From assembly GCA_964592525.1 (NCBI GenBank), contig CAZQFB010000001.1, forward strand, positions 1,212 to 65,211: DNA of 64,000 bases, read 5' to 3'. The stretch is from an uncultured Candidatus Saccharibacteria bacterium (GTDB lineage Bacteria; Patescibacteriota; WWE3; CAZQFB01). The position numbers and the translations under genes were made by a program. The stretch's first letter is position 1; the number at the start of each line of letters is the position of its first letter. The notes beneath the pieces were generated by a model. That model was given only the letters and a program-made list of their open reading frames with translations. It searched no databases and had not been told where the DNA came from. This document shows positions 1 to 53,454 of the stretch, in pieces.

Positions 1-145
1 TGGCGGCGCATTTCGCAAAGCGAAATACGAAATTCGGCGGCGGCGAAAGCGAGGGCGGGGCGGGCATTCATTTCCCCCCAACCCCCTTTTCTGCCCGCCC
101 CGCCCGAGCGTTCTGTTTTGGTTTCTGCCGCGCTTTGCGCGGCAA
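1..145. repeat. GC-rich cluster of hairpin-forming palindromes at the window edge. Examples: ATTTCGC-AAA-GCGAAAT, GGGCGGGGCGGGCA-N25-TGCCCGCCCCGCCC, GCCGCGC-TTT-GCGCGGC.
   Basis: Palindromes read directly from the sequence. The composition is much GC-richer than the bulk of the window. Confidence 0.4.
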
Positions 146-193
146 TCAATCGGGATTTTGTTCAAAAAAGGTTCGCGCTTCGTTCAGTAATTG

Positions 194-351
194 CGACCAA
201 TCTAAACATTGCGAATTTTGCGGGCAGTTTGTTGGCTCGCTCGCCCCGCCTGCGGCGGGGCTTCGCTCGCATTTTTCCATATATTTCGGCACAAAATCAA
301 ACGGACGGACAAAATCAAAAATCAGTTTTCTGTCCAGTAGGCGGCGGTTCG
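194..351. repeat. Left copy of a perfect 158-bp inverted repeat (IR-L).
   Basis: The reverse complement of 1903..2060 is identical to 194..351 over 158 bp. The match breaks at 193/2061 and at 352/1902. The outer end of the repeat is CGACCA. Confidence 0.9.
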
Positions 352-533
352 GGGCGGCAAAGCCGCCAGAGCAAAAACACACCTTTAAGAAATTTATTGA
401 AATGTTTTTGCTTTCCAATTTTTTCCGCGTGCCGCAAAGCGGCACTACGAAGCCAGTTTTTAAATCCCGCGCTTTTTCCGCCGAAGGCGGAATGGCCAAA
501 GGCGACTTTATTAACATTAAGAAGTAAAAACCT

Positions 534-2066
534 ATGAAGACAAAATATTTTCTCTACGCCCGCAAATCAACCGAAGATGAAGAAAGACAAGTGATGAGTA
601 TTGAAGCACAACTTGCGGAGTTGGCGGACTTTGCTAAAAGAGAAAGCCTTGATATTGCCGAGCAATTTATTGAAAGCAAAAGCGCAAAGAAGCCGGGCCG
701 AGAAATTTTTAACGAGATGATACAGAAAATCTACGAGAGTAAAGAGCTAGTAGGAATTTTGGCGTGGCACCCTGACAGATTGGCGAGAAACAGCGTTGAC
801 GGTGGGCAAGTGATTTACTTGATAGACATCGGCAAGATCGCTTCTTTGCGCTTTCCGACATTTTGGTTTGAGCCAACTCCGCAAGGGCTTTTTATGCTTC
901 AAGTCGCCTTTGGCCAATCAAAATATTATTCCGACAATTTGTCGGAAAATGTTAAGCGCGGGATTCGCCAAAAACTCAGGCGCGGCGAATGGCCCGGCCT
1001 TGCGCCGTTTGGTTATGTGAATAATCCGAAAACGCGAACGATTGAGCCAGACCAAATGAAAGCAAGGGTTATCAAAAAAGCGTTTGAGGAATACGCGCAA
1101 GGCCGCCACACCTTGCTTTCACTCGGCGAACGCCTGAGTTTTTGGGGCGTGGTGAGCGGGACCGGAAAACCGCTTTGCAAAGCAACCCTGCAACGAATGC
1201 TGACAAATAAAGTTTATCTCGGCTTAATCGTCCATAATGGTGAAACTTACGAGGGCGGTTTTCCGGCAATTGTTTCCAGAGCGACTTTTGAGAAAGTACA
1301 GGAAGTTTTGAAAAACCGAGCCAAGCCGCGCCATTCCAAAAAGCGACATTATTTTCCATTCACCGGACTTTTAACTTGCGGCGAATGCGGCGCGGCTATT
1401 ACCGCCCAATGGACGCACGGCAACGGCGGGACTTACCGCTATTATCGTTGTACCAAGCGGCTTGGCTCGTGTTCGCAAAGATATTTGAGAGAGGATTTGC
1501 TGGTTGAGCAGTTGAAAGACAAAATCTCAAAAGTCGCTCTTTGCGAAGACTGGAAAGAAAAAATGCTGGCAAAAGTGGAAATGTGGGAAAAGGAAAATAT
1601 CCAGTCTTCGCAATCTTTCGCCCAAAATCTGGAAAAGGAAATCAAGGAAACCGAGCAAAAATTAGACAAGCTCGTTAACGCCTTTTTGGACGGAAGTATT
1701 GAAAAAGAAACTTACCTTGCCAAAAAGGACGAACTCATTAAAACAAAAACAGACCTTAACAAAAGAAAGGCTGATTTTGGGCGAAAGGGAAACAATTGGA
1801 TTGAACCATTGAAAGATTGGATTTTATCCGCTCACCACGCCGAAAAACTGGCTTCGTCAAACGATTTTGATGAAATCAAATCGTTTGCGGAAAAAATTGG
1901 AACGAACCGCCGCCTACTGGACAGAAAACTGATTTTTGATTTTGTCCGTCCGTTTGATTTTGTGCCGAAATATATGGAAAAATGCGAGCGAAGCCCCGCC
2001 GCAGGCGGGGCGAGCGAGCCAACAAACTGCCCGCAAAATTCGCAATGTTTAGATTGGTCGGGGTGA
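534..2066 (+). CDS. Large serine recombinase (resolvase/invertase N-terminal domain plus recombinase domain plus zinc ribbon).
   Basis: The N-terminus reads MKTKYFLYARKSTEDEE..SIEAQ, the resolvase catalytic-Ser motif. The C-terminal half has a Cys-rich zinc ribbon (CGECGAAITAQ...YYRCTKR...CSQ) and a coiled-coil. The last 53 codons lie inside IR-R. Confidence 0.8.
   Translation: MKTKYFLYARKSTEDEERQVMSIEAQLAELADFAKRESLDIAEQFIESKSAKKPGREIFNEMIQKIYESKELVGILAWHPDRLARNSVDGGQVIYLIDIGKIASLRFPTFWFEPTPQGLFMLQVAFGQSKYYSDNLSENVKRGIRQKLRRGEWPGLAPFGYVNNPKTRTIEPDQMKARVIKKAFEEYAQGRHTLLSLGERLSFWGVVSGTGKPLCKATLQRMLTNKVYLGLIVHNGETYEGGFPAIVSRATFEKVQEVLKNRAKPRHSKKRHYFPFTGLLTCGECGAAITAQWTHGNGGTYRYYRCTKRLGSCSQRYLREDLLVEQLKDKISKVALCEDWKEKMLAKVEMWEKENIQSSQSFAQNLEKEIKETEQKLDKLVNAFLDGSIEKETYLAKKDELIKTKTDLNKRKADFGRKGNNWIEPLKDWILSAHHAEKLASSNDFDEIKSFAEKIGTNRRLLDRKLIFDFVRPFDFVPKYMEKCERSPAAGGASEPTNCPQNSQCLDWSG
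1903..2060. repeat. Right copy of the perfect 158-bp inverted repeat (IR-R). It overlaps the recombinase 3' end and the first 6 nt (CCA end) of tRNA-Pro.
   Basis: See IR-L. 2055..2060 (tggtcg) is the complement of the tRNA 3' end CGACCA. Confidence 0.9.
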
Positions 2067-2130
2067 CAGGATTCGAACCTGCGACCTCACGCACCCCATG
2101 CGCGCGCGCTGCCAACTGCGCCACACCCCG
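2055..2130 (-). tRNA. tRNA-Pro (anticodon GGG).
   Basis: Manual cloverleaf. Acceptor CGGGGTG/CACCCCG. D-arm GCGC-AGTTGGCA-GCGC. Anticodon stem CGCGC/GCGTG with loop ATGGGGT (GGG anticodon, G37). T-arm GCAGG-TTCGAAT-CCTGT. Discriminator A and an encoded CCA. Very similar to E. coli proL. Confidence 0.85.
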
Positions 2131-9667: not shown

Positions 9668-10185
9668 AGATAAAACGGAAATTACCTTTAAAAGCTACCC
9701 CCAGTAAAAAATATTTATTGGTTTGGGTAGTGGCTATCTATACTGGTTCAGTGCTAGCTCAATTTGGCGGCTTTTCTGATCTATCTATGTTAGCAATCTG
9801 GGGTCTTTTATTTTCAACGGTAATTACTATCACCCATAGTTTAAAAAACCACCTTACCTCCAAAATGCAGTCTTATCATAACATACTGGTGCTTTGTATG
9901 GGTTTTACCTTTCTTTTTTCACTGCTGTATTTGGTCTTACCCCAAATGACGCAATTGTTACAGCCTTCTTTTGTTTATGCTTTATGGCATTTGGTCATGA
10001 CTATGGGGTATGCCACGATCGTCAAAATATTTAAGGATACGACGCTATTAATCTCATTATTAATTTCTTTGCTCACTCTTAGCTTATATCTGATTCCTCA
10101 ATTTATGGATCTATATCCTTTAATCTTTGGTCTTATACAAGCACCTTTGTTATTAGTGATAGGTTATATTTATTTGCATGACTGA
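9664..10185 (+). CDS. Polytopic membrane protein, function unknown.
   Basis: Multiple hydrophobic segments. Start overlaps the serS stop. Confidence 0.4.
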   Translation: MKIKRKLPLKATPSKKYLLVWVVAIYTGSVLAQFGGFSDLSMLAIWGLLFSTVITITHSLKNHLTSKMQSYHNILVLCMGFTFLFSLLYLVLPQMTQLLQPSFVYALWHLVMTMGYATIVKIFKDTTLLISLLISLLTLSLYLIPQFMDLYPLIFGLIQAPLLLVIGYIYLHD

Positions 10186-10606
10186 TTGGCTGATCTTTAT
10201 TGTGGCGGAGTATTTAATTTACTTAATTGTGTTAGCGTTACCAGTTGTTATTTGGCGTGGCGAATTGAAGTTAGCTTTACGGGGTTTTTATTCTTTAGCT
10301 TCGGCTTATTTTATTGGTTCAATAATCAAATATTTTTTTCCGGTGGCGCGACCGGTAGGTGGGGTTAGTATGCTGGAAGCTCCCGGTTCTTCTTTCCCGT
10401 CTTTACATGCAGCGATGGCTACAGCGGTAGCAGTTTCAATTTTTCTCCAACACCGAAAATATGGCACGGTTCTAATTTTATTAGCAGGGATGGTGAGTGT
10501 AGCTCGAGTATTAGCTAATGTTCATTACACGCTGGATGTTTTGGTGGGGGTTTTGATTGGGGTGGTGGCAGCGTGGTTCATCCACTTAGTGCAGTTATAT
10601 ATTTAA
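10178..10606 (+). CDS. PAP2-family phosphatase (undecaprenyl-PP or lipid phosphatase-like).
   Basis: PAP2 signature motifs KYFFPVARP (KX6RP), FPSLH (PSGH-like) and ARVLANVHYTLD (SRX5HX3D). Confidence 0.65.
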   Translation: MTDWLIFIVAEYLIYLIVLALPVVIWRGELKLALRGFYSLASAYFIGSIIKYFFPVARPVGGVSMLEAPGSSFPSLHAAMATAVAVSIFLQHRKYGTVLILLAGMVSVARVLANVHYTLDVLVGVLIGVVAAWFIHLVQLYI

Positions 10607-25441: not shown

Positions 25442-26767
25442 ATGAAAAGTTTGTTGATTGCTGTATTGCTGATTGCTTTACAAGTAAATCCTGTTTTAGC
25501 CCATCAATATTCTGTCAAATTTTCAGAAATTGCCTGGATGGGTACCAATGCTTCTTCCTCTGATGAGTGGCTTGAGCTTTATAATAGCTCCTCGGAAACA
25601 GTGTCTCTTGAAGGCTGGGGAATCTACGAGTCGGGTGGCGAGGTGTTGGTTGAAGATTTACATGGTGAGATTGGGGGTGGATCCTTTTACCTGGTGGAAA
25701 GAACGAACAACGATACAGTATCAGATATTTCTGCTAGTCAGGAACCTTCCGGTTGGGGTGGGGGTGGTTTGGCTAACGACGGCGAAGATTTGGTAATTAA
25801 AGATAACGAAGGCAACATAGTTGATCGGGTGGATGCGTCAGAGGGTTGGTTTGCCGGGAGCAATACTACTAAAACCTCTATGGAAAGGGTGGATTATTCC
25901 TCTGCAGAATCTTCTGCCTGGCAGGAGAGTAGCGGTACTGTGGGTAAGGATGCTGAAGGCAACCCCATTTATGGCACTCCTGGCAAAGCCAACTCCAGTG
26001 GCGTGGTTAATCAAGATGAGGGGGAAGAAGAAGAGATAGAGGCTGAATCTGAAGAAGATGACGAAGCAGACACAGAAGCTTCGTCTGAAACCCTTCGCCT
26101 TAACGAGCTTATGCCAAATCCTACAGGGGATGATTCAGCTGAATATATTGAGCTTTTTAACTACGGGAATGAGGTGGTTAAATTGGTTGGTTGGGCGATT
26201 GGGGATGAAAGTAGTACCAAACGCTTGGATGCTATAACTGCAGAACAGAAGTGTGCGGCGGGGGATTATCTTGTTCTTTATAGATCCCAAGGAAGTATAA
26301 GTCTTAATAACGATGGGGATAAGGTCTATCTATTTGGTCCTGGGGGAGAGGTGGTAGATGAGGTGAGCTATCAAGATGTCGCTGAAGGGCAAGCTTATGC
26401 TTATGATGGTTTTTCATGGTTAGTGTCCCTGGCACCTACCCCCGGTCAGGTAAATGAGATGGTGTTTGAGGAAGAAGAGGAAACCAACACTCTCAATGAA
26501 GAAAGTGAGAGGGAGGCAGCAAAAGATGAAGTGACAACGACCACTGTGGCTAAGCCCACAGTGAAGGCTAAAGTAGTCCAGCCGGCTTCTTGGGATAATA
26601 TTGAATTGTTAACTCACGATTTGGTCAAAGGAGCGCAAACCTACCAGATAGGTGACAAACCACCAACCAATGAAAAACTTTCAACGAAGAGAGTTATGAT
26701 ATTGACCGTGTTTTTGGTTGGTATTGTGGGGGCTTTGGGGTACCTTAAATGGCGGGAAAAGCGCTGA
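25442..26767 (+). CDS. Surface protein with two lamin-tail (LTD) domains, an acidic linker and a C-terminal membrane anchor.
   Basis: Signal peptide. Two LTD cores (IAWMGTNASSSDEWLELYN..VSLEGW and LNELMPNPTGDDSAEYIELFNYG..VKLVGW). Linker EGEEEEIEAESEEDDEADTEASSE. C-terminal transmembrane segment VMILTVFLVGIVGALGYL. Confidence 0.65.
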   Translation: MKSLLIAVLLIALQVNPVLAHQYSVKFSEIAWMGTNASSSDEWLELYNSSSETVSLEGWGIYESGGEVLVEDLHGEIGGGSFYLVERTNNDTVSDISASQEPSGWGGGGLANDGEDLVIKDNEGNIVDRVDASEGWFAGSNTTKTSMERVDYSSAESSAWQESSGTVGKDAEGNPIYGTPGKANSSGVVNQDEGEEEEIEAESEEDDEADTEASSETLRLNELMPNPTGDDSAEYIELFNYGNEVVKLVGWAIGDESSTKRLDAITAEQKCAAGDYLVLYRSQGSISLNNDGDKVYLFGPGGEVVDEVSYQDVAEGQAYAYDGFSWLVSLAPTPGQVNEMVFEEEEETNTLNEESEREAAKDEVTTTTVAKPTVKAKVVQPASWDNIELLTHDLVKGAQTYQIGDKPPTNEKLSTKRVMILTVFLVGIVGALGYLKWREKR

Positions 26768-27704
26768 TATAGCTATATTGCAGTAGGATTAACACGCTAT
26801 AAAACATAACCAAAATAAAACCCTCGCTGGCGGTTAGCTTGTACTGGCTTCTTAAAAATAAACTGAACACAATCAGTACTAGGGTCCAAGTAATGGAAAT
26901 AAAAGCAATATACCCCGGATTGGTGGGGGTGATGGGGCTAATTAACGCTACCATTCCGAGTACTAGGCAGGAATTAGTGACCACACTGCCTAAAATATTA
27001 CCTAGCGCTAGGCCACTTTCTCTTTTTCTCACGGCGTAAAGTTCAAACGTTAGTTCAGGTAAGGTGGTACCAAAAGCCACAATGGCTGCGCCAATTACAA
27101 CGATTGGTATTTGTAACAGCTCCGCCATATTTGAGGCGGCTAGGACTAAGTAATGGGCGCTAAAAACCAGGACCACCATTTCCAGACCGAATTTAATAAG
27201 ATAGTAGCCGAGTGAATGAATGTTTTCTTCGTGGTTGAATTTTTTGGAAAAGCTTTCCCTTTGTGACATTAAGCGATAGAGATAAAGAAGGAAGAGTATT
27301 AATAAGGCGATGCCGTCGGAGCGGGAAAGTGTAGCATCAGCTAGTAGAATAATAGGCATCATGCTTAGGATAATGGTATAGAAAAGATCACGATTGCGTA
27401 TTTTACTTTCAATTCTCAAGCCATTGGCGAGTAGTGCGGGCAGCCCAATAACTAAAGTTAAGTTAATAATATTGGCCCCCAGAACCATTCCCAAAGCCAG
27501 GTTGGGTTTATTTTCTAAGGCTGAATTAATTCCCACGGTGAGTTCCGGTAGGGAGGTGGCTATAGCCATTAAGATGAAAGCGGCAGTAAATTCCGAAAGC
27601 TTAAAAAATACAGCTAGCTTGGTTAAGGTTTGGATAGCGGAAGTCGCACTTTTGATCAAGATGACTAACACCGTAATAAACAAACCTAGTTGCAGCCCAA
27701 GCAT
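26745..27704 (-). CDS. CaCA-family cation/Ca2+ exchanger (YrbG-like).
   Basis: Two alpha-repeat regions (GNS..ELTVGINSAL and TTLPELTFELYAV..GNILGS). About 10 transmembrane segments. Confidence 0.7.
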   Translation of the reverse strand: MLGLQLGLFITVLVILIKSATSAIQTLTKLAVFFKLSEFTAAFILMAIATSLPELTVGINSALENKPNLALGMVLGANIINLTLVIGLPALLANGLRIESKIRNRDLFYTIILSMMPIILLADATLSRSDGIALLILFLLYLYRLMSQRESFSKKFNHEENIHSLGYYLIKFGLEMVVLVFSAHYLVLAASNMAELLQIPIVVIGAAIVAFGTTLPELTFELYAVRKRESGLALGNILGSVVTNSCLVLGMVALISPITPTNPGYIAFISITWTLVLIVFSLFLRSQYKLTASEGFILVMFYSVLILLQYSYISAFPAI

Positions 27705-27757
27705 AGCATAATTATCAAGTATCTTATGATGCTTAGCAAACCCCCAAGCTTGTTATA

Positions 27758-28141
27758 ATGCAAAGTATGCGTTTAATGTTGTTATATTACTTACCGTTGC
27801 TTGGCTGGTTAGGCGTGATTTATTACCTTTCTAGCTTACCTGGATTAGCGGTTAGTACGGGCTGGACTGATTTTATGCTGCGTAAAGGGGCTCATTTTGT
27901 TGAATATCTCGTACTGTGTCTGCTTATTTATCGGCTATTAGCTAGACACGCGTTGTTTTCTAGATATCGGTTATGGGTGGCTTTGTTTTTAACAGCTATT
28001 TACGCCGCGAGTGATGAGTATCACCAGTCGTTAGTGCCTACCCGCTCTGGTAACCTGACTGATTGGTGGCTGGATACTACGGGGGCTTTAGCGGGAGCGG
28101 GAGTTATCAAATATGGACAAGTGGATTCATTTATCAAGTGA
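27758..28141 (+). CDS. VanZ-like family membrane protein.
   Basis: Four transmembrane helices and a VanZ-like core (YAASDEYHQSLVPTRSGNLTDWWLDTTGA). Confidence 0.55.
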   Translation: MQSMRLMLLYYLPLLGWLGVIYYLSSLPGLAVSTGWTDFMLRKGAHFVEYLVLCLLIYRLLARHALFSRYRLWVALFLTAIYAASDEYHQSLVPTRSGNLTDWWLDTTGALAGAGVIKYGQVDSFIK

Positions 28142-28550
28142 AGAAGATACTAAAAATTTAGCCCAAGAGATAGCTAATAACCTCCAGGGTGGTGAGGTTA
28201 TTGCTCTTAGTGGAGAATTGGGTACGGGTAAAACTACTTTTACTAGGTATTTGGTGGCGTGTTTGGGAGGTACGGCTAGAGTGATGAGCCCAACGTTTGT
28301 GCTTCATCGGATATACCCCGTGCACAGTGGTTCTATTGTAAAAGTCCATCATTTGGATGCTTATCGGTTAGGAGCCAATCAGGATTTTGAGGAAGGCATT
28401 AATATAGAAGAACTGGTAGATCAGAAATCTGTTTTGGTAGTTGAATGGGCAGACAAGGTGTTGGCTTGGTTGCCCCAGGATAGCTTGATCAAAATTGAGT
28501 TTGAATACCTGGAAAAGGGTGGAAGAAAGTTAAAAATAAAGGGCGTTTAA
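28113..28550 (+). CDS. tsaE: tRNA t6A biosynthesis ATPase TsaE (YjeE).
   Basis: Walker A GELGTGKTT. Size and layout of YjeE. Adjacent to a tsaB-like gene. Confidence 0.8.
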   Translation: MDKWIHLSSEEDTKNLAQEIANNLQGGEVIALSGELGTGKTTFTRYLVACLGGTARVMSPTFVLHRIYPVHSGSIVKVHHLDAYRLGANQDFEEGINIEELVDQKSVLVVEWADKVLAWLPQDSLIKIEFEYLEKGGRKLKIKGV

Positions 28551-28635
28551 CTTAAAATTCAAAAGCTAAAAGCAATATCTAAAGGTTAGTAAGTTATACT
28601 TATTGCTTATTGGCAATTATTTTTTAGATAAGATT

Positions 28636-28932
28636 ATGAAGTTATTTATTGATACATCAGATAGGGATAACAAGGTAATAAAAATTGGCGACCACCAACG
28701 TGGTTTTGATGGTGACTTGCTCCTGGAGATTGATTCTCTTTTAAACGAAATAGGTAAAGACGTGCACGACATTACCGAAATTGAGGTTAACAAAGGACCA
28801 GGATCGTTCACTTCGTTAAGGATCGGTGTGGCTGTGACCAATGCCCTTAATTATGCCCTTGGGCTAAAAGAGGAAACGATTACGCCAGTGTACGGTTCCC
28901 CTCCCAATATCACCACGACACACAATAAATAG
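28636..28932 (+). CDS. tsaB: TsaB-like (YeaZ) N-terminal domain, either a short form or a truncated fragment.
   Basis: MKLFIDTSDRD...GPGSFTSLRIGVAVTNALNYALGL matches the TsaB N-terminal ASKHA subdomain. Only about 98 aa, ending right where the GC-rich island begins. Confidence 0.5.
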   Translation: MKLFIDTSDRDNKVIKIGDHQRGFDGDLLLEIDSLLNEIGKDVHDITEIEVNKGPGSFTSLRIGVAVTNALNYALGLKEETITPVYGSPPNITTTHNK

Positions 28933-29045
28933 CACCATCCAGTCCTTTCCCTAGCAAGCAAACATGGTTACTTCAGCTTTTCCTCGCTACATGTTTTAGT
29001 TATTTGCTGTTAAGTCTGGAGTGATAAATAACGGGAAAATGAAGC

Positions 29046-29081
29046 AACCCCGCCTTTGGCATAGTGCCGAAAGGCGGGGTT
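29046..29081 (-). terminator. Strong GC-rich hairpin (AACCCCGCCTTTGGC / GCCGAAAGGCGGGGTT) downstream of the island minus-strand gene. Possibly bidirectional.
   Basis: A 15-16 bp stem with one bulge, followed on the minus strand by TTCATTTTCCC. Confidence 0.5.
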
Positions 29082-29093
29082 GTGCGTTGCTAG

Positions 29094-29600
29094 CTATACC
29101 TCTTCCCGCTGTTCCTCATTTAGCGGGTACGCGTACTTCGTTCCGTTGAGTATGTCGGAGACGATCCCCGACGCTACCACCCAGGGTATGGGTTGATGGA
29201 CCTGGACTACCCAGGTCAGAACCCTCTCGGTGGTTCCCCGAGGCGTCTGGAGACGAATTTGCATGTACGTATAGGGGAGGGTGTTTCCTTCCTTATCCCC
29301 AATCCGCACAGCATACTCGTCTTGTTTTAGCAGGGCCTCCAGACCAACAATTCTGGAGACCTCAAAATCCAAGGTGACGCCAAGAGTCAGCGCCACCTCT
29401 TGGTTGTATGGGTCTATGACTTCAAGCCACCGCTTGATTGGATCATAGCTGAAATCTTCCCGCCACTCCGGCGGGATATCATCCAGACTGGCTGCCTGGA
29501 GGTAGGGGCGACCGAATTCATCATATCTCACGTCCCCCCCTCTGCCCGATGACTTCCTATACTTTACTCCCGCTTCTGTCAACAACACCCGTACGGACAT
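29094..29600 (-). CDS. Hypothetical protein (island gene A), GC-rich, unknown function.
   Basis: High-GC ORF. ATG at 29600 (MSVRVLL) is preceded by AAAGGAAAA 6-7 nt upstream. The longer track ORF would overlap the divergent promoter. Confidence 0.45.
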   Translation of the reverse strand: MSVRVLLTEAGVKYRKSSGRGGDVRYDEFGRPYLQAASLDDIPPEWREDFSYDPIKRWLEVIDPYNQEVALTLGVTLDFEVSRIVGLEALLKQDEYAVRIGDKEGNTLPYTYMQIRLQTPRGTTERVLTWVVQVHQPIPWVVASGIVSDILNGTKYAYPLNEEQREEV

Positions 29601-29716
29601 TTGCGTTTTCCTTTCTCTCTCCTTCGGGGGGTCTGCCCCGTAAGGATGGAATTGATGGCGGTGGTCCGTATCCAACCGCCTTAGGCTAGAAGACACCATA
29701 TCATAGACCCATAGTG

Positions 29717-29745
29717 TTGTCAAAGGGGTTGCGGTGTGTTATAGT
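29717..29745 (+). promoter_or_regulatory. Sigma70-like promoter (TTGTCA, 17 nt, TATAGT) driving island genes B and C.
   Basis: ttgtca at 29717-22, a 17-nt spacer, tatagt at 29740-45. AAGGAG Shine-Dalgarno at 29782-87 with a GTG start at 29794. Confidence 0.5.
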
Positions 29746-29793
29746 CTTGATCAATTCAGCGTTCGGCTGAAAAGCCTTGATAAGGAGTATTCC

Positions 29794-30285
29794 GTGGCAA
29801 GCTTGTTTCTCACTAAGGACGTGGCGGAAGAGGCGTTGGATCTTTTCGCGGCTTTCTGGGAGTCCTTTGTGGCTTCTGGTAGGCCGAAGCGCTCGGATCT
29901 GCATGTGGTCATTCTGGATCCGACCATTAAGCCAAGCGCTCACACCTTTGATGAGGCTGTCCTCTGTGAGCGCTCCTTTGGGGATAGGGTGCTTTGGGAG
30001 CATCCCTATCGGATGATCGCTCGCGAGAAGGCAGAAGCTACTTGGCGTGAGGGAATGCCCAATGGTCGGATGTTGGCGGAGGCAGCCCCCTTGATCCAAG
30101 TAGGTGATACCCGCTGGGGGAGTGCCTACCACGGCATCCCCATTGTCGGTTGCAGTGGCGTACAGCCCTGGTTTGACGAGATGTGTGGGGCTTTGGTGTC
30201 TCATTTGTGCCGTGGTTTGGCCCAAGATGAGCGCCAAAAGTGCGAGGCAACTCTAGAGGGTAATTTCTACCACTCTGTGCTCTGA
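29794..30285 (+). CDS. Hypothetical protein (island gene B), possibly a GlcG/HbpS-like (DUF336) fold.
   Basis: From-memory resemblance to the DUF336 pattern (LHVVILDP..., IAREKAEATW, ...GIPIVGCSGVQPWFDEMCGALV). GC-rich. Strong Shine-Dalgarno. Confidence 0.35.
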   Translation: MASLFLTKDVAEEALDLFAAFWESFVASGRPKRSDLHVVILDPTIKPSAHTFDEAVLCERSFGDRVLWEHPYRMIAREKAEATWREGMPNGRMLAEAAPLIQVGDTRWGSAYHGIPIVGCSGVQPWFDEMCGALVSHLCRGLAQDERQKCEATLEGNFYHSVL

Positions 30286-30309
30286 TACCTAGCCAAAGGA
30301 GAAGAAGCA

Positions 30310-30690
30310 ATGCCCGTCGCCTATGTTTATGGTGTTATGGTTGATGGTCTGACTGATCTCTCCCAGGGGGTGTTGGCAGACTTCATTCGTCGCACGGCGG
30401 CGCCGGAGCTAGGACACTGTGCAGAAGATATGGAGGTTAGCTTCCTTGCCACCCCAGTCTTCTCACTTGGAGCGATGCCGCTGAATGTGATAGTGCTCTG
30501 GTCTACACCATGGCCTCGGAGTCAGGATGATTGGGACCAGATCGCCCGAAGGAGAGACTCCTGTTTAAGGGCCCTACGGGTGCTATTCAAAGCACCCGAA
30601 TTGTTGGAATATATGGGAGAAGCCACAGGACGAGTCTTGGTTGAAGCGTGGCCAAGACCGGGCTGTAACTTCCAGCTCTTTCCTCTGTAG
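30310..30690 (+). CDS. Hypothetical protein (island gene C), 126 aa, starting Met-Pro. A tautomerase-superfamily-like fold is possible.
   Basis: The MPVAYVYGV N-terminus (Pro-1) and ~126-aa size recall CHMI or tautomerase family members. Speculative. Confidence 0.3.
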   Translation: MPVAYVYGVMVDGLTDLSQGVLADFIRRTAAPELGHCAEDMEVSFLATPVFSLGAMPLNVIVLWSTPWPRSQDDWDQIARRRDSCLRALRVLFKAPELLEYMGEATGRVLVEAWPRPGCNFQLFPL

Positions 30691-30696
30691 TTTCAG

Positions 30697-30733
30697 GCCC
30701 GATTGGCACAAGCCAGTCGGGCCTTTGTTCCTC
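30697..30733 (+). terminator. Hairpin (GCCCGATTGG-cacaagc-CAGTCGGGC) followed by a T-rich tract, terminating the island + strand operon.
   Basis: A 9-10 bp stem followed by CTTTGTTCCTC. Confidence 0.45.
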
Positions 30734-30780
30734 AAACCCCATAGTAGTAATCATCCTTTTTATATGGTATATTCACCTTT

Positions 30781-31353
30781 GCAGGAAGATGCACGGTCGC
30801 TGTTTTTTGTCATTAGGTTTTAGTGGTTAGGTTCTAGTAGGATTTCCTAAATTAAGGGACCTGCCATGTGAAGCCTTTCACCCTCCTTAGTTTTTGCGAA
30901 GAAGGGGTGGCGAAGGATGGAGGAAAGTCCAGACAGCATAGAGCAAGGGGTCGGGCCGTAAGTCCCGATGCGTAAGCACTGGTGTCTCTTTTCCGAAAGG
31001 AAAAGAGGATAGAGAGGGCATCAACCCTTTCTAAGACCCACAGAGACAATACGAGACCTAAGGCATTAGCTATGGTCAAAAGGTGAAAAGCCATGAACCA
31101 CATCAGGTTCTAGTTAAGGGAATCCCACCCGCTGCAATCCACGACCCTGCCGATGAAAGGCTGCTCGTCATGGGATCGCTTTTGTGATCAATCGGTAGAA
31201 AGTTGGAGCATTAGATAGATGACCGTTACCCAGCTCTTGGTAGCTGACACCCCACTTCGTTCGCCTTTGGCGAACTTTGAAGAGGTTAAGCACCGCTAAG
31301 AACGCCTTGCGTTCAAGAGTTGCTAAACAGAATCTGGCTTACTCTTCCCGCTC
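30781..31353 (+). ncRNA. rnpB: RNase P RNA (bacterial type A). The confident core is about 30905..31353; the 5' end is uncertain.
   Basis: Universally conserved AGGAAAGUCC (30921-30930) and 3' ACAGAAUCUGGCUUA (31327-31341). The P4 pseudoknot covaries with E. coli (GUCCAGA/UCUGGC versus GUCCGGG/CCCGGC). GGUGAAAAG (31084-31092) is an L13/L14-like GNRA-type loop motif. The extended -10 at 30765-30773 and a candidate P1 (GCAGGAAGA/UCUUCCCGC) suggest a long 5' region. Confidence 0.75.
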
Positions 31354-31359
31354 AATGAA

Positions 31360-31398
31360 GACCAGGCTCCCCGCCGAATTGGCGGGGAGCCTCTGGTC
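31360..31398 (+). terminator. GC-rich hairpin (GACCAGGCTCCCCGCC-gaatt-GGCGGGGAGCCTCTGGTC) immediately after rnpB.
   Basis: A 16-bp stem with a 2-nt bulge. No U-tract, so possibly a processing or termination hairpin. Confidence 0.4.
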
Positions 31399-31495
31399 AA
31401 ATTAGTGCGCTGACCCTTTGTCCCCGGTATTAAAAATTTTCAGGAAAAAGTTATTTAGCTTGTTTTAGAGGGGATGTTTTCTTAGGCAGCTGATA

Positions 31496-32518
31496 CTACC
31501 TAACTTGGTTGGCTTTTTTAGCTCTTGGTTTTAAACCAAACATTTCTCCATATAGTTCCGTAAAAACTAAATAGGCAATTAGAGCAGAAGGCACGGCTAG
31601 GATAACGCCAATTATCCCAAATAACGCACCCCCAACAAGTAGCAGGATTAAAGTTACTAAAGGGTTCAGACCGACTGTTTTTTTCATCACTGTGGGTACT
31701 AAAATATTATTTTCGGTTTGCTGGATAATGGTGTATAACAAAGCCACTCCCAAGACGGTCCAGGGACCACTGGAAAGCGCCACAATTAAAGCGGGAATTG
31801 CAGACAGAATTGGTCCGATGACCGGTACTATTTCTAGTACCCCAGCAACCAAAGCTAAGGATAAGGCATATTCCACCTTTAACATGACCAGACCAAGATA
31901 AGTTAAGACGCCGATAATCATGCCTAATAATAACTGACCTCTAATATAAGCACCTAAAATGTTTTCAATGGAACCGACTAAATTTTCCGCTAACACCTTT
32001 TTACTCATAGGAAACAGACTAATAAAAAGCTTCTTGACCGCATCAAATTCAACTAAAAGGTAAAAAGTAAAAACAAAGATCGAAAGCACAAACAGAAAAT
32101 TAGAAAATATTCCCAAAGTGGCACTGATCACATTGTTGGAATTGGCGTTTAGCTGACCACTAAAAAAATCTTGGAGTTGTCCTTGGAAGGGATCTTCTTT
32201 TACACCTAACTGTTCTTCAATAAAGATGGGGAGATAATCCAAAAGCTTATTCATTTGCGAGGTAATCGGTTTAATACCCGCGACTCCAACCGATCCCAGA
32301 AAAGAGAGTATGACTAGATAAAGTATGGCTGTGCTCATGCCTCGTGGGATTTTTCTCTCCTGCGCCCAATCAATAATTGGCGTGAGCATTAAGGTTAGCA
32401 GCAAAGAGACAAACAGCGCGAAAATAACCGGGAAAACTTGAATGGTTACCCACACCCCCAAAACTATCAAAAGCAATGCAACTAATGTCTGACCGGTAAC
32501 TACTATTTGTTTGTCCAT
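31496..32518 (-). CDS. AI-2E family transporter (PerM/YhhT-like).
   Basis: 340 aa. 7-8 transmembrane segments with the AI-2E signature region. Confidence 0.65.
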   Translation of the reverse strand: MDKQIVVTGQTLVALLLIVLGVWVTIQVFPVIFALFVSLLLTLMLTPIIDWAQERKIPRGMSTAILYLVILSFLGSVGVAGIKPITSQMNKLLDYLPIFIEEQLGVKEDPFQGQLQDFFSGQLNANSNNVISATLGIFSNFLFVLSIFVFTFYLLVEFDAVKKLFISLFPMSKKVLAENLVGSIENILGAYIRGQLLLGMIIGVLTYLGLVMLKVEYALSLALVAGVLEIVPVIGPILSAIPALIVALSSGPWTVLGVALLYTIIQQTENNILVPTVMKKTVGLNPLVTLILLLVGGALFGIIGVILAVPSALIAYLVFTELYGEMFGLKPRAKKANQVR

Positions 32519-50347: not shown

Positions 50348-51282
50348 AAACAAGCAAGATTATCAGTATTAACGATATAAATAGAGTTGAGATAGAGCAA
50401 CTCATTGATCGTGCAAATCAATTGCGGGAGGAGCGCTTCAGGCGCTACCTCCCGCCTTTCATTATGGGTTTGTTTTTCTTTCAGGAGTCTACTCGTACGC
50501 AAATTGGTTTTCAGGCAGCTGCTTATAGATTGGGGGGTCAAGTTTTTACATTTAAAAACACGAAATATCAATCAAACATGTCGTCAGCCGAAAGTCTTGC
50601 GGATTCTATCAAGGTATTAGAATCATATGCAGATGTGCTCTGCATAAGGCATTTTGATGACAGTATATTTTCTGATCTGTTTAGATCGATTAGTAAGCCT
50701 GTTGTAAACTGTGGTAATGGTTTTGATGAGCATCCTACCCAAACCCTGACCGATCTATACATGATTAAGGATACACTAGGCAATATAGATAATCTGACTA
50801 TTGCTCTTGTTGGAGATCTTCGGCATATGCGCACTTCTCATTCCTTGTTGCTTGGTCTATCGAAATTTAATCGGATTTCGGTGATATGTGTGTCTCCTAA
50901 AGAGCTTAGAATGCCTGATCGCTATAAAAATGTGTACGGAAAAACACCAAATAATCTCAAGGAGATAAATGACTTGAATCTTCAGGGTGTTGATGTAGTG
51001 TATATGGCAGGATTTGCCCCCAAGACACCTATAGGAGACTATGATGCTGATATTAGAGAAAAATATAGTTTAAGAGGAAAGTCTTTTTTATCACTAGTTA
51101 AACCCCCAATTATTATGTGTCCTCTTCCTCGTGTAGATGAAATTGATCCCACCTTAGACCAAACACCTTATTCAAAATATTTTAAGCAGAGTGCGTTGGG
51201 CTTATACACCAGAATGGCTTTACTTGAATTTATTTTAGCTCCAAAAGGAGAGAATATTTACAATGTTGGGGGGTTGAATTGA
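50335..51282 (+). CDS. Aspartate/ornithine carbamoyltransferase-fold protein with variant active-site motifs.
   Basis: STRTQ (canonical STRTR), HPTQ, GDLRHMRTSHSL (ATCase-like) and CPLPR (canonical HPLPR). About 315 aa from MAALK. Confidence 0.6.
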   Translation: MAALKTSKIISINDINRVEIEQLIDRANQLREERFRRYLPPFIMGLFFFQESTRTQIGFQAAAYRLGGQVFTFKNTKYQSNMSSAESLADSIKVLESYADVLCIRHFDDSIFSDLFRSISKPVVNCGNGFDEHPTQTLTDLYMIKDTLGNIDNLTIALVGDLRHMRTSHSLLLGLSKFNRISVICVSPKELRMPDRYKNVYGKTPNNLKEINDLNLQGVDVVYMAGFAPKTPIGDYDADIREKYSLRGKSFLSLVKPPIIMCPLPRVDEIDPTLDQTPYSKYFKQSALGLYTRMALLEFILAPKGENIYNVGGLN

Positions 51283-52119
51283 ACTATTTATTACAGACAA
51301 GTCTGCTTATACCGGTGGAAGCAGGTTCTTGTTAGAAAATTAATAACACTAAGAGTCCCGTTTCAATATTAGAAGAGTGGCTTTTTGATGTTAGATTATT
51401 ATCTAAAATTGTTCTGGGAAAAGTTGTGAGGGGACTATCGGGAGATATTTATTATAAGGTGCTTTAGTCCTTAGTCTGTGGTGCAATGGGTAATAAAGCA
51501 TTGCTGTGAACATTGAATTTGAGCAAAAGGGGAAATAATATTTAGTTTAGAAGTAGTTTTGTATAACTACGAGTTATTAGGTGTTAGCTTTTGTATAGAA
51601 TAAATTTATTAGATTAACCTTTTAACATATCTAAGATCTGCCACCTTGGGGATGGGTACATTTTCAGTCTCGATTGGTGATTATATATTGTTTCAGGTGG
51701 TGGGTATCAAAATGTCCGCGGTGTTAAAAATATCTAATAAAAAAACAGCGTATTAAGTATGTTTACAGAAGTTTTCATCAGAGGGTCTTTTTTACTGTGG
51801 TTAGATTATAGAAATCGGGATCATAAGGTTTCTGATAATCTTTAACCCATCTCCTTAGCTGGTAATTTGTGTCTCGGGATGCTTTAGATTGTTGGATATA
51901 TGCCTTTGGATTTAAGCCGCATCAGCCCGAACCTCTCTATCGAGTATTATTGAAAGTGATCGTGATTAGAATAAATAATTAAACTACAGTCGCGTAATTT
52001 ACACGAGCTGACCATATAAAATCAAAAGTAGAATAAATATCTATAAATTTAGAGTAATTTCAAGAAAGTCTAGTCGCGAAGAGTAGTTAAAGAATCTTAT
52101 TTTTTCCAAGAAGCATTAA

Positions 52120-53454
52120 TCAACTCAAAATACTTGATGAAATATTATCTGCTTCTACTAAGACTTTTCTATTCAAATCCTCTTGCGCACTCCCTACTTC
52201 CACCACAGCCCCAATATATCCGTCAATGAATATTGAGCCTTTTGTTGGGTATGTTGATAGATATTTACCTTTTCCAGGATTAAATATCTTTTGCACATTT
52301 CCTTTAGCTAATTCCTTAATTATTATTTGACCAGGTTCGTAAGGTTTTATTTTTACGTGTGCCCAGGAAGAAGGATATTGGATTTTTGCATAATCTAGGT
52401 CTTGTTCTATTTTATTATCAGTAACGCATGCGAGTTCTATATCCGTCAGGTTAACTCCTAAAGCGCTTAATGCTAGAGCATTACATTCATAACCTCCTTG
52501 TCGACGTGGGTTTAAATCCACTATTACTAACCTCCCCTTTTTATCTATCAAAAAATCACAACCAAAAAGACCCCTGTAACCCATCTTAGATAGGTAGTTA
52601 CCGATTTTATTAGTTATTTCCAAGATCTGGTTGTGATGATTGTTAGAAATTTTTGTAGGATAATAATTTCCAAGGTATTTGTTGCCTCTCATAATCTGAT
52701 CCGAAACTACTAATGGATATGTTTTATTCAATCCTGTTACCACTGCATTAACATTAGGCATTGCTCTAACATGGTTCATAATTGTAGCTACAACAAAACC
52801 TTTTTCTTGATTAACATTTCTCAATTTGGATAAGAAAGTGTTTAGCATCTCCTTGCTATATATTAAACCACTTTCTGCTCCTCCAGAGGTATAGGATGCC
52901 GTTATATAACCCGGATACACGTTATTTTTAGATAGTAATTCATTGGAGTCTTTATATATTTTCGCTTTGTTGAATGGGAGTTTTAATTTTCGAAACAACT
53001 TATAATGTTCGATTTTATTATCAAGAAAGGTAGCGATTTTATTGTTAGGACCTAACGTTAACCAGTAAGGTTCTTTCAGGTCTAAGAAAGAGGTGGTAAA
53101 AGGATAGACAGGAATAATACCTTGCTTTTTACTTAATTTTGATGCTATTTCATTAATAATTGGTTCGTGTAAAAATTCCTTATTGAGGTCTTCGTATTCC
53201 TGCACATACACAACAGGATTTTTCAATGACCTTTCAACCTCACTTGCTCCGCGGTTAATTACAATGTAGCTATCTGAAGAAAACCACTTGTTTGGAGTAA
53301 ACGAATATATATTTATAGGTTTAAATGGGACATTATAGAGAGAGGAAAGAGACGTAGCCATCATTTCATTCATAGCATCAAATCTTGGTCCCAATAATGA
53401 AAAGAAATAATGGTACTTATTTGTGAATAAATCTTTATCTAATTTCATTAACAT
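52120..53454 (-). CDS. ATP-grasp domain protein (RimK/ligase-like), function unknown.
   Basis: C-terminal ATP-grasp core (GYRGLFGCDFLIDKKGRLVIVDLNPRRQG). Visibly AT-rich coding sequence. Confidence 0.55.
   Translation of the reverse strand: MLMKLDKDLFTNKYHYFFSLLGPRFDAMNEMMATSLSSLYNVPFKPINIYSFTPNKWFSSDSYIVINRGASEVERSLKNPVVYVQEYEDLNKEFLHEPIINEIASKLSKKQGIIPVYPFTTSFLDLKEPYWLTLGPNNKIATFLDNKIEHYKLFRKLKLPFNKAKIYKDSNELLSKNNVYPGYITASYTSGGAESGLIYSKEMLNTFLSKLRNVNQEKGFVVATIMNHVRAMPNVNAVVTGLNKTYPLVVSDQIMRGNKYLGNYYPTKISNNHHNQILEITNKIGNYLSKMGYRGLFGCDFLIDKKGRLVIVDLNPRRQGGYECNALALSALGVNLTDIELACVTDNKIEQDLDYAKIQYPSSWAHVKIKPYEPGQIIIKELAKGNVQKIFNPGKGKYLSTYPTKGSIFIDGYIGAVVEVGSAQEDLNRKVLVEADNISSSILS

Follow-up and report, generated by a model that had tools for sequence, protein, structure and literature searches.

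A GC-rich three-gene islet between tsaB and rnpB in a Patescibacteria chromosome, probably captured from a GC-richer donor

Genomic islands are common in Patescibacteria: hundreds of events were described in 125 genomes, of whose length they can make up as much as 13% (Gios et al. 2025, PMC12455944), and most individual gene transfers were reported as taking place between members of Patescibacteria (PMC12455944). Here we analysed a candidate for such an event in a stretch of 64,000 nucleotides (hereafter, the window) from contig CAZQFB010000001.1 of assembly GCA_964592525.1, which belongs to an uncultured bacterium of the WWE3 lineage of this group. The islet under study lies between tsaB and rnpB, the gene for the RNase P RNA; it is richer in guanine plus cytosine (GC) than the DNA around it, and it contains three open reading frames (ORFs), designated genes A, B, and C.

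Described protein families offer a basis for comparison with the products of genes B and C. DUF336 proteins are associated with small molecules, namely haem in HbpS, haem and cobalamin in PduO, and formaldehyde in EfgA, which causes growth arrest (PMC8153426). EfgA remains functional after transfer between distant hosts, no gene context is conserved around it, and its residues S114 and D121 have been implicated in formaldehyde binding (PMC8153426). The DUF336 gene nahX is placed directly after nahJ, encoding a 4-oxalocrotonate isomerase, in the gene list of the sal operon (PMC5336314).

Our data indicate that the islet, at positions 29044-30724 of the window, is very probably real and foreign. 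The reading that we favour, with a probability of about 0.7, is that a WWE3-like member of Patescibacteria (Candidate Phyla Radiation, CPR) carries in its chromosome a true accessory cassette gained by horizontal transfer, which would have come from a GC-richer donor, would carry its own expression signals and have a sensing or handling role, and would have been captured without the help of an integrase. Acquisition from a higher-GC donor had been put forward in the initial annotation of this DNA, and it is the best reading of the composition of the islet, its GC content at third codon positions (GC3), its physical linkage to the flanking genes and its absence in relatives.

The segment 28933-30733 has a GC content of 53.6%, in comparison with 41.2% in the rest of the window (z = 5.4 with regard to non-overlapping 1.8-kb segments, whose maximum was 47.1%), and the L1 distance of its tetranucleotide frequencies from those of the rest of the window also resulted in a z value of 5.4. 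The two GC values bear out an earlier estimate of about 55% vs 42%. Along the sequence, GC content climbs from 0.33-0.44 to 0.52-0.58 across approximately 28.95-30.75 kb. A maximal-segment scan placed the GC-rich core at 29044-30723 (54.6% GC), spanning from one terminator hairpin to the other, and the scores of this core (94-129) were more than threefold higher than the null maximum obtained with block-shuffled sequence (30.5). The GC enrichment of the islet is real and statistically strong. Values of GC at first, second, and third codon positions were 0.615, 0.385, and 0.621 for gene A, 0.610, 0.457, and 0.616 for gene B, and 0.622, 0.457, and 0.543 for gene C, whereas the means for 33 host ORFs were 0.508, 0.366, and 0.371, with a host GC3 standard deviation of 0.04 and a maximum of 0.483. 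The excess is thus greatest at third codon positions (0.54-0.62 vs 0.37 in the host).

The linkage of this DNA to its flanks was observed in three Logan contigs found by exact-protein look-up. Each of them was assembled from a single run of the Sequence Read Archive, with an assembler different from that of the original assembly, and each is 100% identical to the window over its whole length, with no gaps. The contig from run SRR11845623 corresponds to 27002-30744 and crosses the left junction, the contig from SRR11845625 corresponds to 28755-31251 and crosses both junctions, and the contig from SRR11845624 corresponds to 29660-31572 and crosses the right junction. Both junctions are therefore reproduced independently of the original assembly, which makes chimerism, the alternative considered in the initial annotation, very unlikely.

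A third line of evidence is provided by the genomes of relatives. The closest relatives according to TsaE, with 37-46% identity, are Patescibacteria, WWE3, and 'Saccharibacteria' metagenome-assembled genomes among JGI metagenomes and the GTDB representative genomes, a set that does not include the genome of the window itself. The gene block common to these relatives consists of an ftsE-like gene (w22608), w23282, an M23 peptidase gene, sometimes a VanZ gene, tsaE, and a short tsaB, and synteny ends exactly at the stop codon of tsaB in every relative. Homologs of A, B, and C were found neither in about 160 loci of relatives nor elsewhere in the window. The tsaB-rnpB junction was likewise absent in the nearest relatives (at most 46% TsaE identity). 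In two relatives, represented by contigs L095 and L007, rnpB is located upstream of the block and on the opposite strand, in L095 beside a fragment of an AI-2E transporter gene; in the window, the pair formed by rnpB and an AI-2E transporter gene is located downstream of tsaB. A weaker rnpB-like motif match was found at the corresponding place in a third relative (L016). Since relatives keep rnpB upstream of the block, the adjacency of tsaB and rnpB is specific to the lineage of the window, and the islet lies at a rearrangement junction.

In agreement with the initial annotation, the islet is a self-contained three-gene unit organized around a divergent promoter region, with gene A on the minus strand and a B-C operon on the plus strand. 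Gene A (29094-29600, minus strand) encodes 168 amino acids (aa) and was recovered both as an ORF and by an independent gene call. A control region of 193 bp separates it from gene B (29794-30285, plus strand, 163 aa), whose GTG start is 6 nt past an AAGGAG sequence. Gene C (30310-30690, plus strand, 126 aa) starts 24 nt beyond the stop codon of gene B, and AAGGAG precedes this start by 8 nt. Independent gene calling in the Logan contigs resulted in 168, 163, and 126 aa for A, B, and C, respectively, and longer alternative starts (183 aa for B; 201 or 209 aa for A) begin upstream of the predicted transcription starts.

Analysis of the control region revealed two back-to-back promoter sequences at 29695-29745, one on each strand. 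The promoter TTGTCA-17-TATAGT claimed previously is present on the plus strand at 29717-29745 (P_BC, TTGTCA-17-TGTTATAGT, with TG before the TATAGT −10 element), and a mirror promoter overlaps it on the minus strand at 29723-29695 (P_A, TTGACA-17-TATGGT). Each of them matches 10 of 12 consensus positions, and their −35 hexamers share the same 7 bp on opposite strands. The two ends of the islet are marked by hairpins, also anticipated in the earlier reading. The left one (29045-29082, minus strand) has a perfect 13-bp stem (−30.7 kcal/mol, z = −5.84), beyond which the U-rich sequence CUUCAUUUUCC is found on the same strand; it serves gene A as its intrinsic terminator and is likely to stop read-through from tsaB as well. 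The right one (30695-30724, plus strand), the intrinsic terminator of the B-C operon, has a 13-pair stem followed by TTTGTTCC (−27 kcal/mol, z = −5.88). Regarding translation signals, AAGGAG was found upstream of the three genes, as had been noted before, and AGGAG or GGAGG was found upstream of 5 of 40 host ORFs, an approximate count given that host start codons are uncurated. Strong Shine-Dalgarno sites such as those of the islet are unusual for this host.

Additional sequence elements were observed within the islet. The predicted 88-nt leader of gene A (29598-29690, minus strand) has a folding energy of −30.5 kcal/mol (z = −2.8 vs shuffled sequence), and its hairpin sequesters the distal AAGGAG while the proximal AAAGGA stays free. 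A 20-nt inverted repeat with 90% complementarity (29616-35/30538-57) has one arm in this leader, including the distal AAGGAG, and the other in the coding region of gene C, with an estimated chance expectation of about 0.015. A second inverted repeat, a perfect 13-mer (29407-19/29701-13; estimated chance expectation of about 0.07), has one arm inside gene A and the other overlapping the spacer of P_A. These two repeats could be operator sites or relics of duplication.

All three ORFs are likely to be coding. For each of the three genes, the annotated frame outscored the other five, whether the codon model had been trained on the remaining two islet genes or on the host, and in gene A the codon positions follow the order GC1 > GC2 < GC3 that is seen in real genes. 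With pI values of 4.8-5.3, the three predicted proteins are acidic, and they lack membrane segments; pairwise comparison revealed no paralogy among them, and no internal repeat was found between the halves of C. The coding status of A and C is less certain than that of B.

The description of the three products as small proteins of unknown function has stood: none of them had a match in Pfam, NCBIfam, PHROG, or PADLOC at E ≤ 1, A and C matched only themselves, and B had three distant homologs. Protein A (168 aa, acidic, soluble) retrieved only itself from an index of 5.8e9 proteins and from an exhaustive phmmer search of 1.84e9 cluster representatives, and a sequence search of the PDB gave only chance-level matches. 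As far as these sequence collections reach, protein A is a strict ORFan.

Protein B belongs to a family of four clusters among the 5.8e9 proteins, its three homologs showing 34-41% identity. These homologs are encoded on contigs of 48%, 64.5%, and 72.5% GC with unrelated neighbourhoods, and tblastn searches found no A- or C-like partner genes around them. One homolog, P0003 (L166 346-889), is located on a contig of 64% GC beside a weak HicA-toxin-like gene and a DUF2795 gene, which hints at an accessory or mobile context. The AlphaFold2 (AF2) model of protein B, based on the four-sequence alignment, reached a pLDDT of 82.6 and a pTM of 0.80. When it was compared with PDB structures using Foldseek, the best eight matches were all DUF336 proteins (HbpS, EfgA, DESPIG_02683, NahX, and ORFY), with probabilities of 0.97-1.0 and TM-scores of 0.46-0.61, and the next matches, MglB and roadblock-type proteins, were clearly worse. 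On the basis of this model, a DUF336-like fold is likely for protein B.

The signature motifs of DUF336 are VVD..G, KA.TA, GG.P, and G-V-S-G followed by Asp; beyond the G...SG...D segment, their mapping onto protein B was done by eye. The pair S121/D128 (Ser-x6-Asp) is invariant in the B family and is placed by hhalign, in a local match short of significance, on the G-V-S-G...D motif of DUF336. The K-A helix motif is also invariant in the family, as are residues H37, W68, Y72, W84, R85, and W108, which are particular to it. The GlcG/DUF336-like assignment suggested in the initial annotation thus holds at the level of predicted fold and does not hold by sequence: protein B is probably a remote DUF336 homolog, and it is not a demonstrable member of the family.

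The proposal that protein C may be Pro-1 tautomerase-like did not fare as well. The protein starts with MPVAYVY and so presents Pro-2, i.e., Pro-1 after removal of Met, a feature that is necessary and far from sufficient for a tautomerase. A word-indexed search of the 5.8e9 proteins returned only protein C itself, and the Pfam families lacking a match at E ≤ 1 included Tautomerase, Tautomerase_2/3, MIF, and CHMI. The PDB phmmer matches at E ≤ 10 were all at chance level and included no tautomerase, though at least 44 tautomerase-superfamily sequences are present in the PDB, and BLASTP comparison with 4-oxalocrotonate tautomerase (4-OT; sequence identical to 1bjp_A) gave nothing meaningful. The single-sequence AF2 model of protein C (pLDDT 59.8, pTM 0.52) has the order beta-alpha-beta-beta-alpha; its best Foldseek matches were dimeric ferredoxin-like, NIPSNAP, and Dabb-type proteins (TM-scores of 0.44-0.50), and tautomerases were missing from the top 50, a ranking to be read with the uncertainty of the model. 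What is left of the tautomerase idea is therefore Pro-1 and an order of secondary structure elements that would be compatible with it.

Regarding the mode of insertion, the presence of a stable RNA gene next to the islet had led to the suggestion of an insertion hot spot, and this mechanism found no support. No integrase or recombinase gene is present in or adjoining the islet, the only recombinase gene of the window (534-2066) being 27 kb away. The search for att-like flanking direct repeats revealed only 10-15-nt repeats at chance level, none of them duplicating part of rnpB; one of them, an exact 11-mer shared by positions 29100 and 31342, has a chance expectation of about one. In addition, it is the 5′ side of rnpB that faces the islet, not the 3′ end. 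The lack of a mobility gene or att repeat, together with a lineage-specific junction at the end of a syntenic block, suggests a capture without integrase, and the cassette may have arrived by illegitimate recombination or during the rearrangement rather than by integrase-mediated insertion.

Concerning the donor, blastn searches of the islet against PLSDB plasmids and INPHARED phages gave no match, scans of IMG/VR with A, C, and the B alignment revealed no relatives, and a BFVD fold search with B retrieved nothing. The sole hint is that the relatives of protein B all come from GC-richer genomes.

Both genes flanking the islet belong to the host, and their identities in the initial annotation were confirmed. 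To the left, tsaB (28636-28932, plus strand, 98 aa; PF00814, E = 1.2e-9) is a short form. The islet did not truncate this gene, because its product aligns end to end with the 105-127-aa TsaB proteins of Patescibacteria relatives, in which the short form is standard; truncation was accordingly ruled out. In the window and in about 25 loci of relatives, a short TsaB (approximately 100-127 aa) is conserved in this Patescibacteria clade and encoded directly after, or overlapping, tsaE. To the right, rnpB (30895-31356, plus strand; RF00010, 41.5 bits, E = 7.5e-11) is atypical: its 462 nt span the full model with large insertions of about 62 and 79 nt, and it is missed at the gathering threshold of RF00010, which is a score of 100. 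The P4 signature sequences GAGGAAAGTCC ... ACAGAATCTGGCTTA are present. In the relatives, rnpB was located at 308-632 (minus strand) in L095 and at 3-336 (minus strand) in L007, the latter scoring best against the archaeal model.

The gene neighbourhood of the islet includes genes for VanZ, TsaE, TsaB, the RNase P RNA, an AI-2E transporter, a 324-aa ORF, and a radical-SAM/UPF0004 protein. The 324-aa ORF is a putative miaA, read as such from its own sequence and weak matches. Between the M23 peptidase gene and VanZ/tsaE, positions 25442-27704 of the window contain genes for a secreted or anchored protein with a lamin-tail domain (LTD) and for a Na+/Ca2+ exchanger. In relatives, the M23 gene is about 0.85-1.35 kb from tsaE, and no match to the LTD or exchanger genes was found; this segment looks like a second lineage-specific insertion, with host-like GC content. 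In another Patescibacteria relative, a LOOT RNA (RF03000, 78.6 bits) was found at 10168-10291 (minus strand) of contig L091, about 3.5 kb downstream of tsaB.

The islet is not the sole compositional outlier of the window. Positions 1-2200 are equally deviant in tetranucleotides (L1 distance of 0.53); they hold short GC-rich segments and a large serine recombinase gene (534-2066, plus strand; Resolvase, Recombinase, and Zn_ribbon_recom domains), which abuts a tRNA-Pro gene (2055-2130, minus strand). This region probably represents one end of a prophage or other integrated mobile element, the rest of which would lie outside the window. A third region, at 50400-52200, has low GC content (33.5-35%) and moderately deviant tetranucleotides, and it overlaps an aspartate/ornithine carbamoyltransferase-like ORF and the space before an ATP-grasp ORF.

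From these data a model can be proposed for the acquired cassette. It would bring its own signals, i.e., two back-to-back promoters of the sigma-70 type, strong Shine-Dalgarno sites, and a terminator at each end, with one promoter driving gene A and the other the bicistronic B-C operon. The overlap of the −35 boxes would make the two units compete for RNA polymerase, so that the expression of A and that of B-C may be mutually antagonistic. B and C might then act as a cytoplasmic pair for small-molecule sensing or handling, in which B would bind the ligand and C would be a cofactor-less enzyme or a partner. This last proposal is a tentative one, and we consider it doubtful; it is made by analogy, because DUF336 proteins bind or sense small molecules and ride with catabolic operons (GlcG in the glc operon, nahX after nahJ).

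Several observations weigh against this interpretation. On the genomic side, the searches pointed to no donor, and no empty site was found among the relatives available, which share only 37-46% TsaE identity; furthermore, the three Logan runs bear consecutive accession numbers and may sample a single population. Promoter-like sites numbered 4, vs 3.2 expected in shuffled sequence, and the promoters are consensus matches only. As for the coding potential, 12% of dinucleotide shuffles yielded a stop-free stretch of at least 168 codons, which makes ORF length alone weak evidence, and for A and C there are no homologs in which conservation or purifying selection would show. With respect to function, the proposed role rests on analogy only, and the AF2 model of protein C is of low confidence. 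The DUF336 relationship of protein B is affected as well: none of the four members of its family had a Pfam match at E ≤ 10, PF03928 included; no DUF336 chain of the PDB was retrieved at E ≤ 10 in a profile search with the B family, the sequence search with protein B giving chance-level matches only; hhalign against four PDB DUF336 sequences aligned just the C-terminal G...SG...D over 30 columns (E = 0.07, probability of 0.8%); and the TM-scores to DUF336 structures are modest.

Among the alternatives, the cassette could be foreign and yet, instead of a metabolic or sensing pair, encode a conflict or otherwise selfish module of the toxin-antitoxin or abortive infection type, or some other anti-phage or addiction system, with the divergent, mutually exclusive promoters acting as a switch. 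Its small and self-contained organization, its ORFan make-up, and its overlapping divergent promoters agree with this idea, as do the weak HicA-toxin-like gene adjoining the B homolog on L166 and the growth arrest exerted by the DUF336 protein EfgA upon ligand binding (PMC8153426), and fast-evolving conflict genes are typically ORFans. On the other hand, A, B, and C had no PADLOC or PHROG match at E ≤ 1, no viral relatives were found by sequence or fold, and no nuclease, NTPase, or other effector-type domain was found. The three B homologs, moreover, are devoid of A- or C-like partners, and so do not reveal a conserved system architecture. We regard a conflict module as unlikely.

A more ambitious version of the favoured reading is equally improbable. 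The islet might represent an undescribed three-component system that this ultra-small bacterium took from a GC-rich organism, possibly its own host cell, and in which a new DUF336-like ligand sensor (B), its operon partner C, and the divergently transcribed ORFan A form a switch-like module. If this were the case, a small molecule derived from the host could, as an example, trigger the module to halt or reprogramme growth in the manner of EfgA, and A, and probably C, would be protein families unseen elsewhere in about 15 billion sequenced proteins.

The islet might also be an inert relic, i.e., captured foreign DNA that is neither expressed nor functional, with A and C as chance or decaying ORFs. 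Streamlined genomes can briefly carry neutral insertions, ORF length is weakly significant, and A has no homolog in 1.84e9 representatives, nor C in the indexed 5.8e9 proteins. Against this possibility, three intact ORFs tile the segment, each in its best codon-model frame and with gene-like GC at codon positions; Shine-Dalgarno sites, promoters, and terminators are present; and protein B is well folded in its model and belongs to a family conserved at 34-41% identity. There is thus little likelihood that the islet is such a relic.

The possibility that the region is native, with a high GC content due to local constraints such as a structured RNA or an odd amino acid composition, gains something from the vicinity of rnpB, which is itself GC-rich (0.46-0.51) and with which the islet segment fuses at the two lower thresholds of the maximal-segment scan. 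Against this explanation, amino acid composition cannot account for the excess of GC at third codon positions; in addition, a structured RNA was discarded, as no Rfam family other than RNase P was matched in 28400-31600 at E ≤ 1, and none of the relatives carries A, B, or C. We consider a native origin very improbable. Finally, a chimera or contamination, in which 1.7 kb of GC-rich DNA from another organism were joined in silico to a CPR contig, is scarcely credible: the GC step is abrupt at both ends, the source is a metagenome-assembled genome, and the contig from SRR11845623 stops just 20 nt past the right hairpin, but the junctions are reproduced without gaps as described above, the boundaries coincide with functional terminators, the flanking genes are intact, and the remaining Logan contig ends fall at unrelated positions.

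Under the favoured reading of a foreign cassette captured without integrase, the islet shows, in a clean and verified case, that a streamlined Patescibacteria genome has recently captured genes, in line with the published evidence on horizontal transfer. A very rare family with a DUF336-like structure is added by it, along with two proteins for which no relatives were found (in an exhaustive search for A, and in the word index only for C). These would be candidates for structural or functional genomics if the organism, or an episymbiosis in which it takes part, became tractable. The islet does not open any long-standing question; its value lies in three negative results, namely that it is very unlikely to be a chimera, that no sign of insertion by an integrase was found, and that protein C is not a demonstrable tautomerase.

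Comparison with described systems places these observations in context. Protein B resembles the DUF336/GlcG/HbpS/EfgA/NahX/PduO C-terminal family (PF03928) in predicted fold, in size (approximately 140-165 aa) and in being a stand-alone cytoplasmic protein. The order of motifs also appears to be the same, with a strand and Asp, a K-A helix, a Gly loop, x-S-G, and an Asp 7 residues past the Ser, although this mapping is partly by eye, and S114 and D121 of EfgA have the same spacing as S121 and D128 of protein B. Like EfgA, the homologs of B lack a conserved gene neighbourhood. The differences are found in the spacing of the N-terminal motifs, which is off by about 12-15 residues, and in the long C-terminal helix of protein B (residues 125-162). 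As for protein C, it shares with the tautomerase superfamily (4-OT, fused 4-OT, MIF, and CHMI) the Pro after Met and, as predicted, the beta-alpha-beta-beta-alpha order, its 126 aa are close to the 123-129 aa of fused 4-OTs, and it is encoded beside the DUF336-type gene B just as nahJ is beside nahX. It differs from tautomerases in the lack of sequence similarity and in its best fold matches, which lie elsewhere according to a low-confidence model.

At the level of genome organization, the islet shares a stable-RNA neighbour and an atypical composition with integrase-mediated islands at tRNA or tmRNA genes. Unlike these, it has no integrase within 27 kb and no repeat duplicating rnpB, it is located on the 5′ side of the RNA gene, and rnpB is found elsewhere in relatives. 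In comparison with the islands described in Patescibacteria (PMC12455944), the islet is very small (1.7 kb, three genes), it has no recognisable function, mobility gene, or donor, and for two of its three genes the searches returned no relatives; with those islands it shares deviant composition, accessory genes, and a streamlined CPR genome as its setting. Within this framework, it is an ordinary kind of ORFan genomic islet, a phenomenon already known in Patescibacteria.

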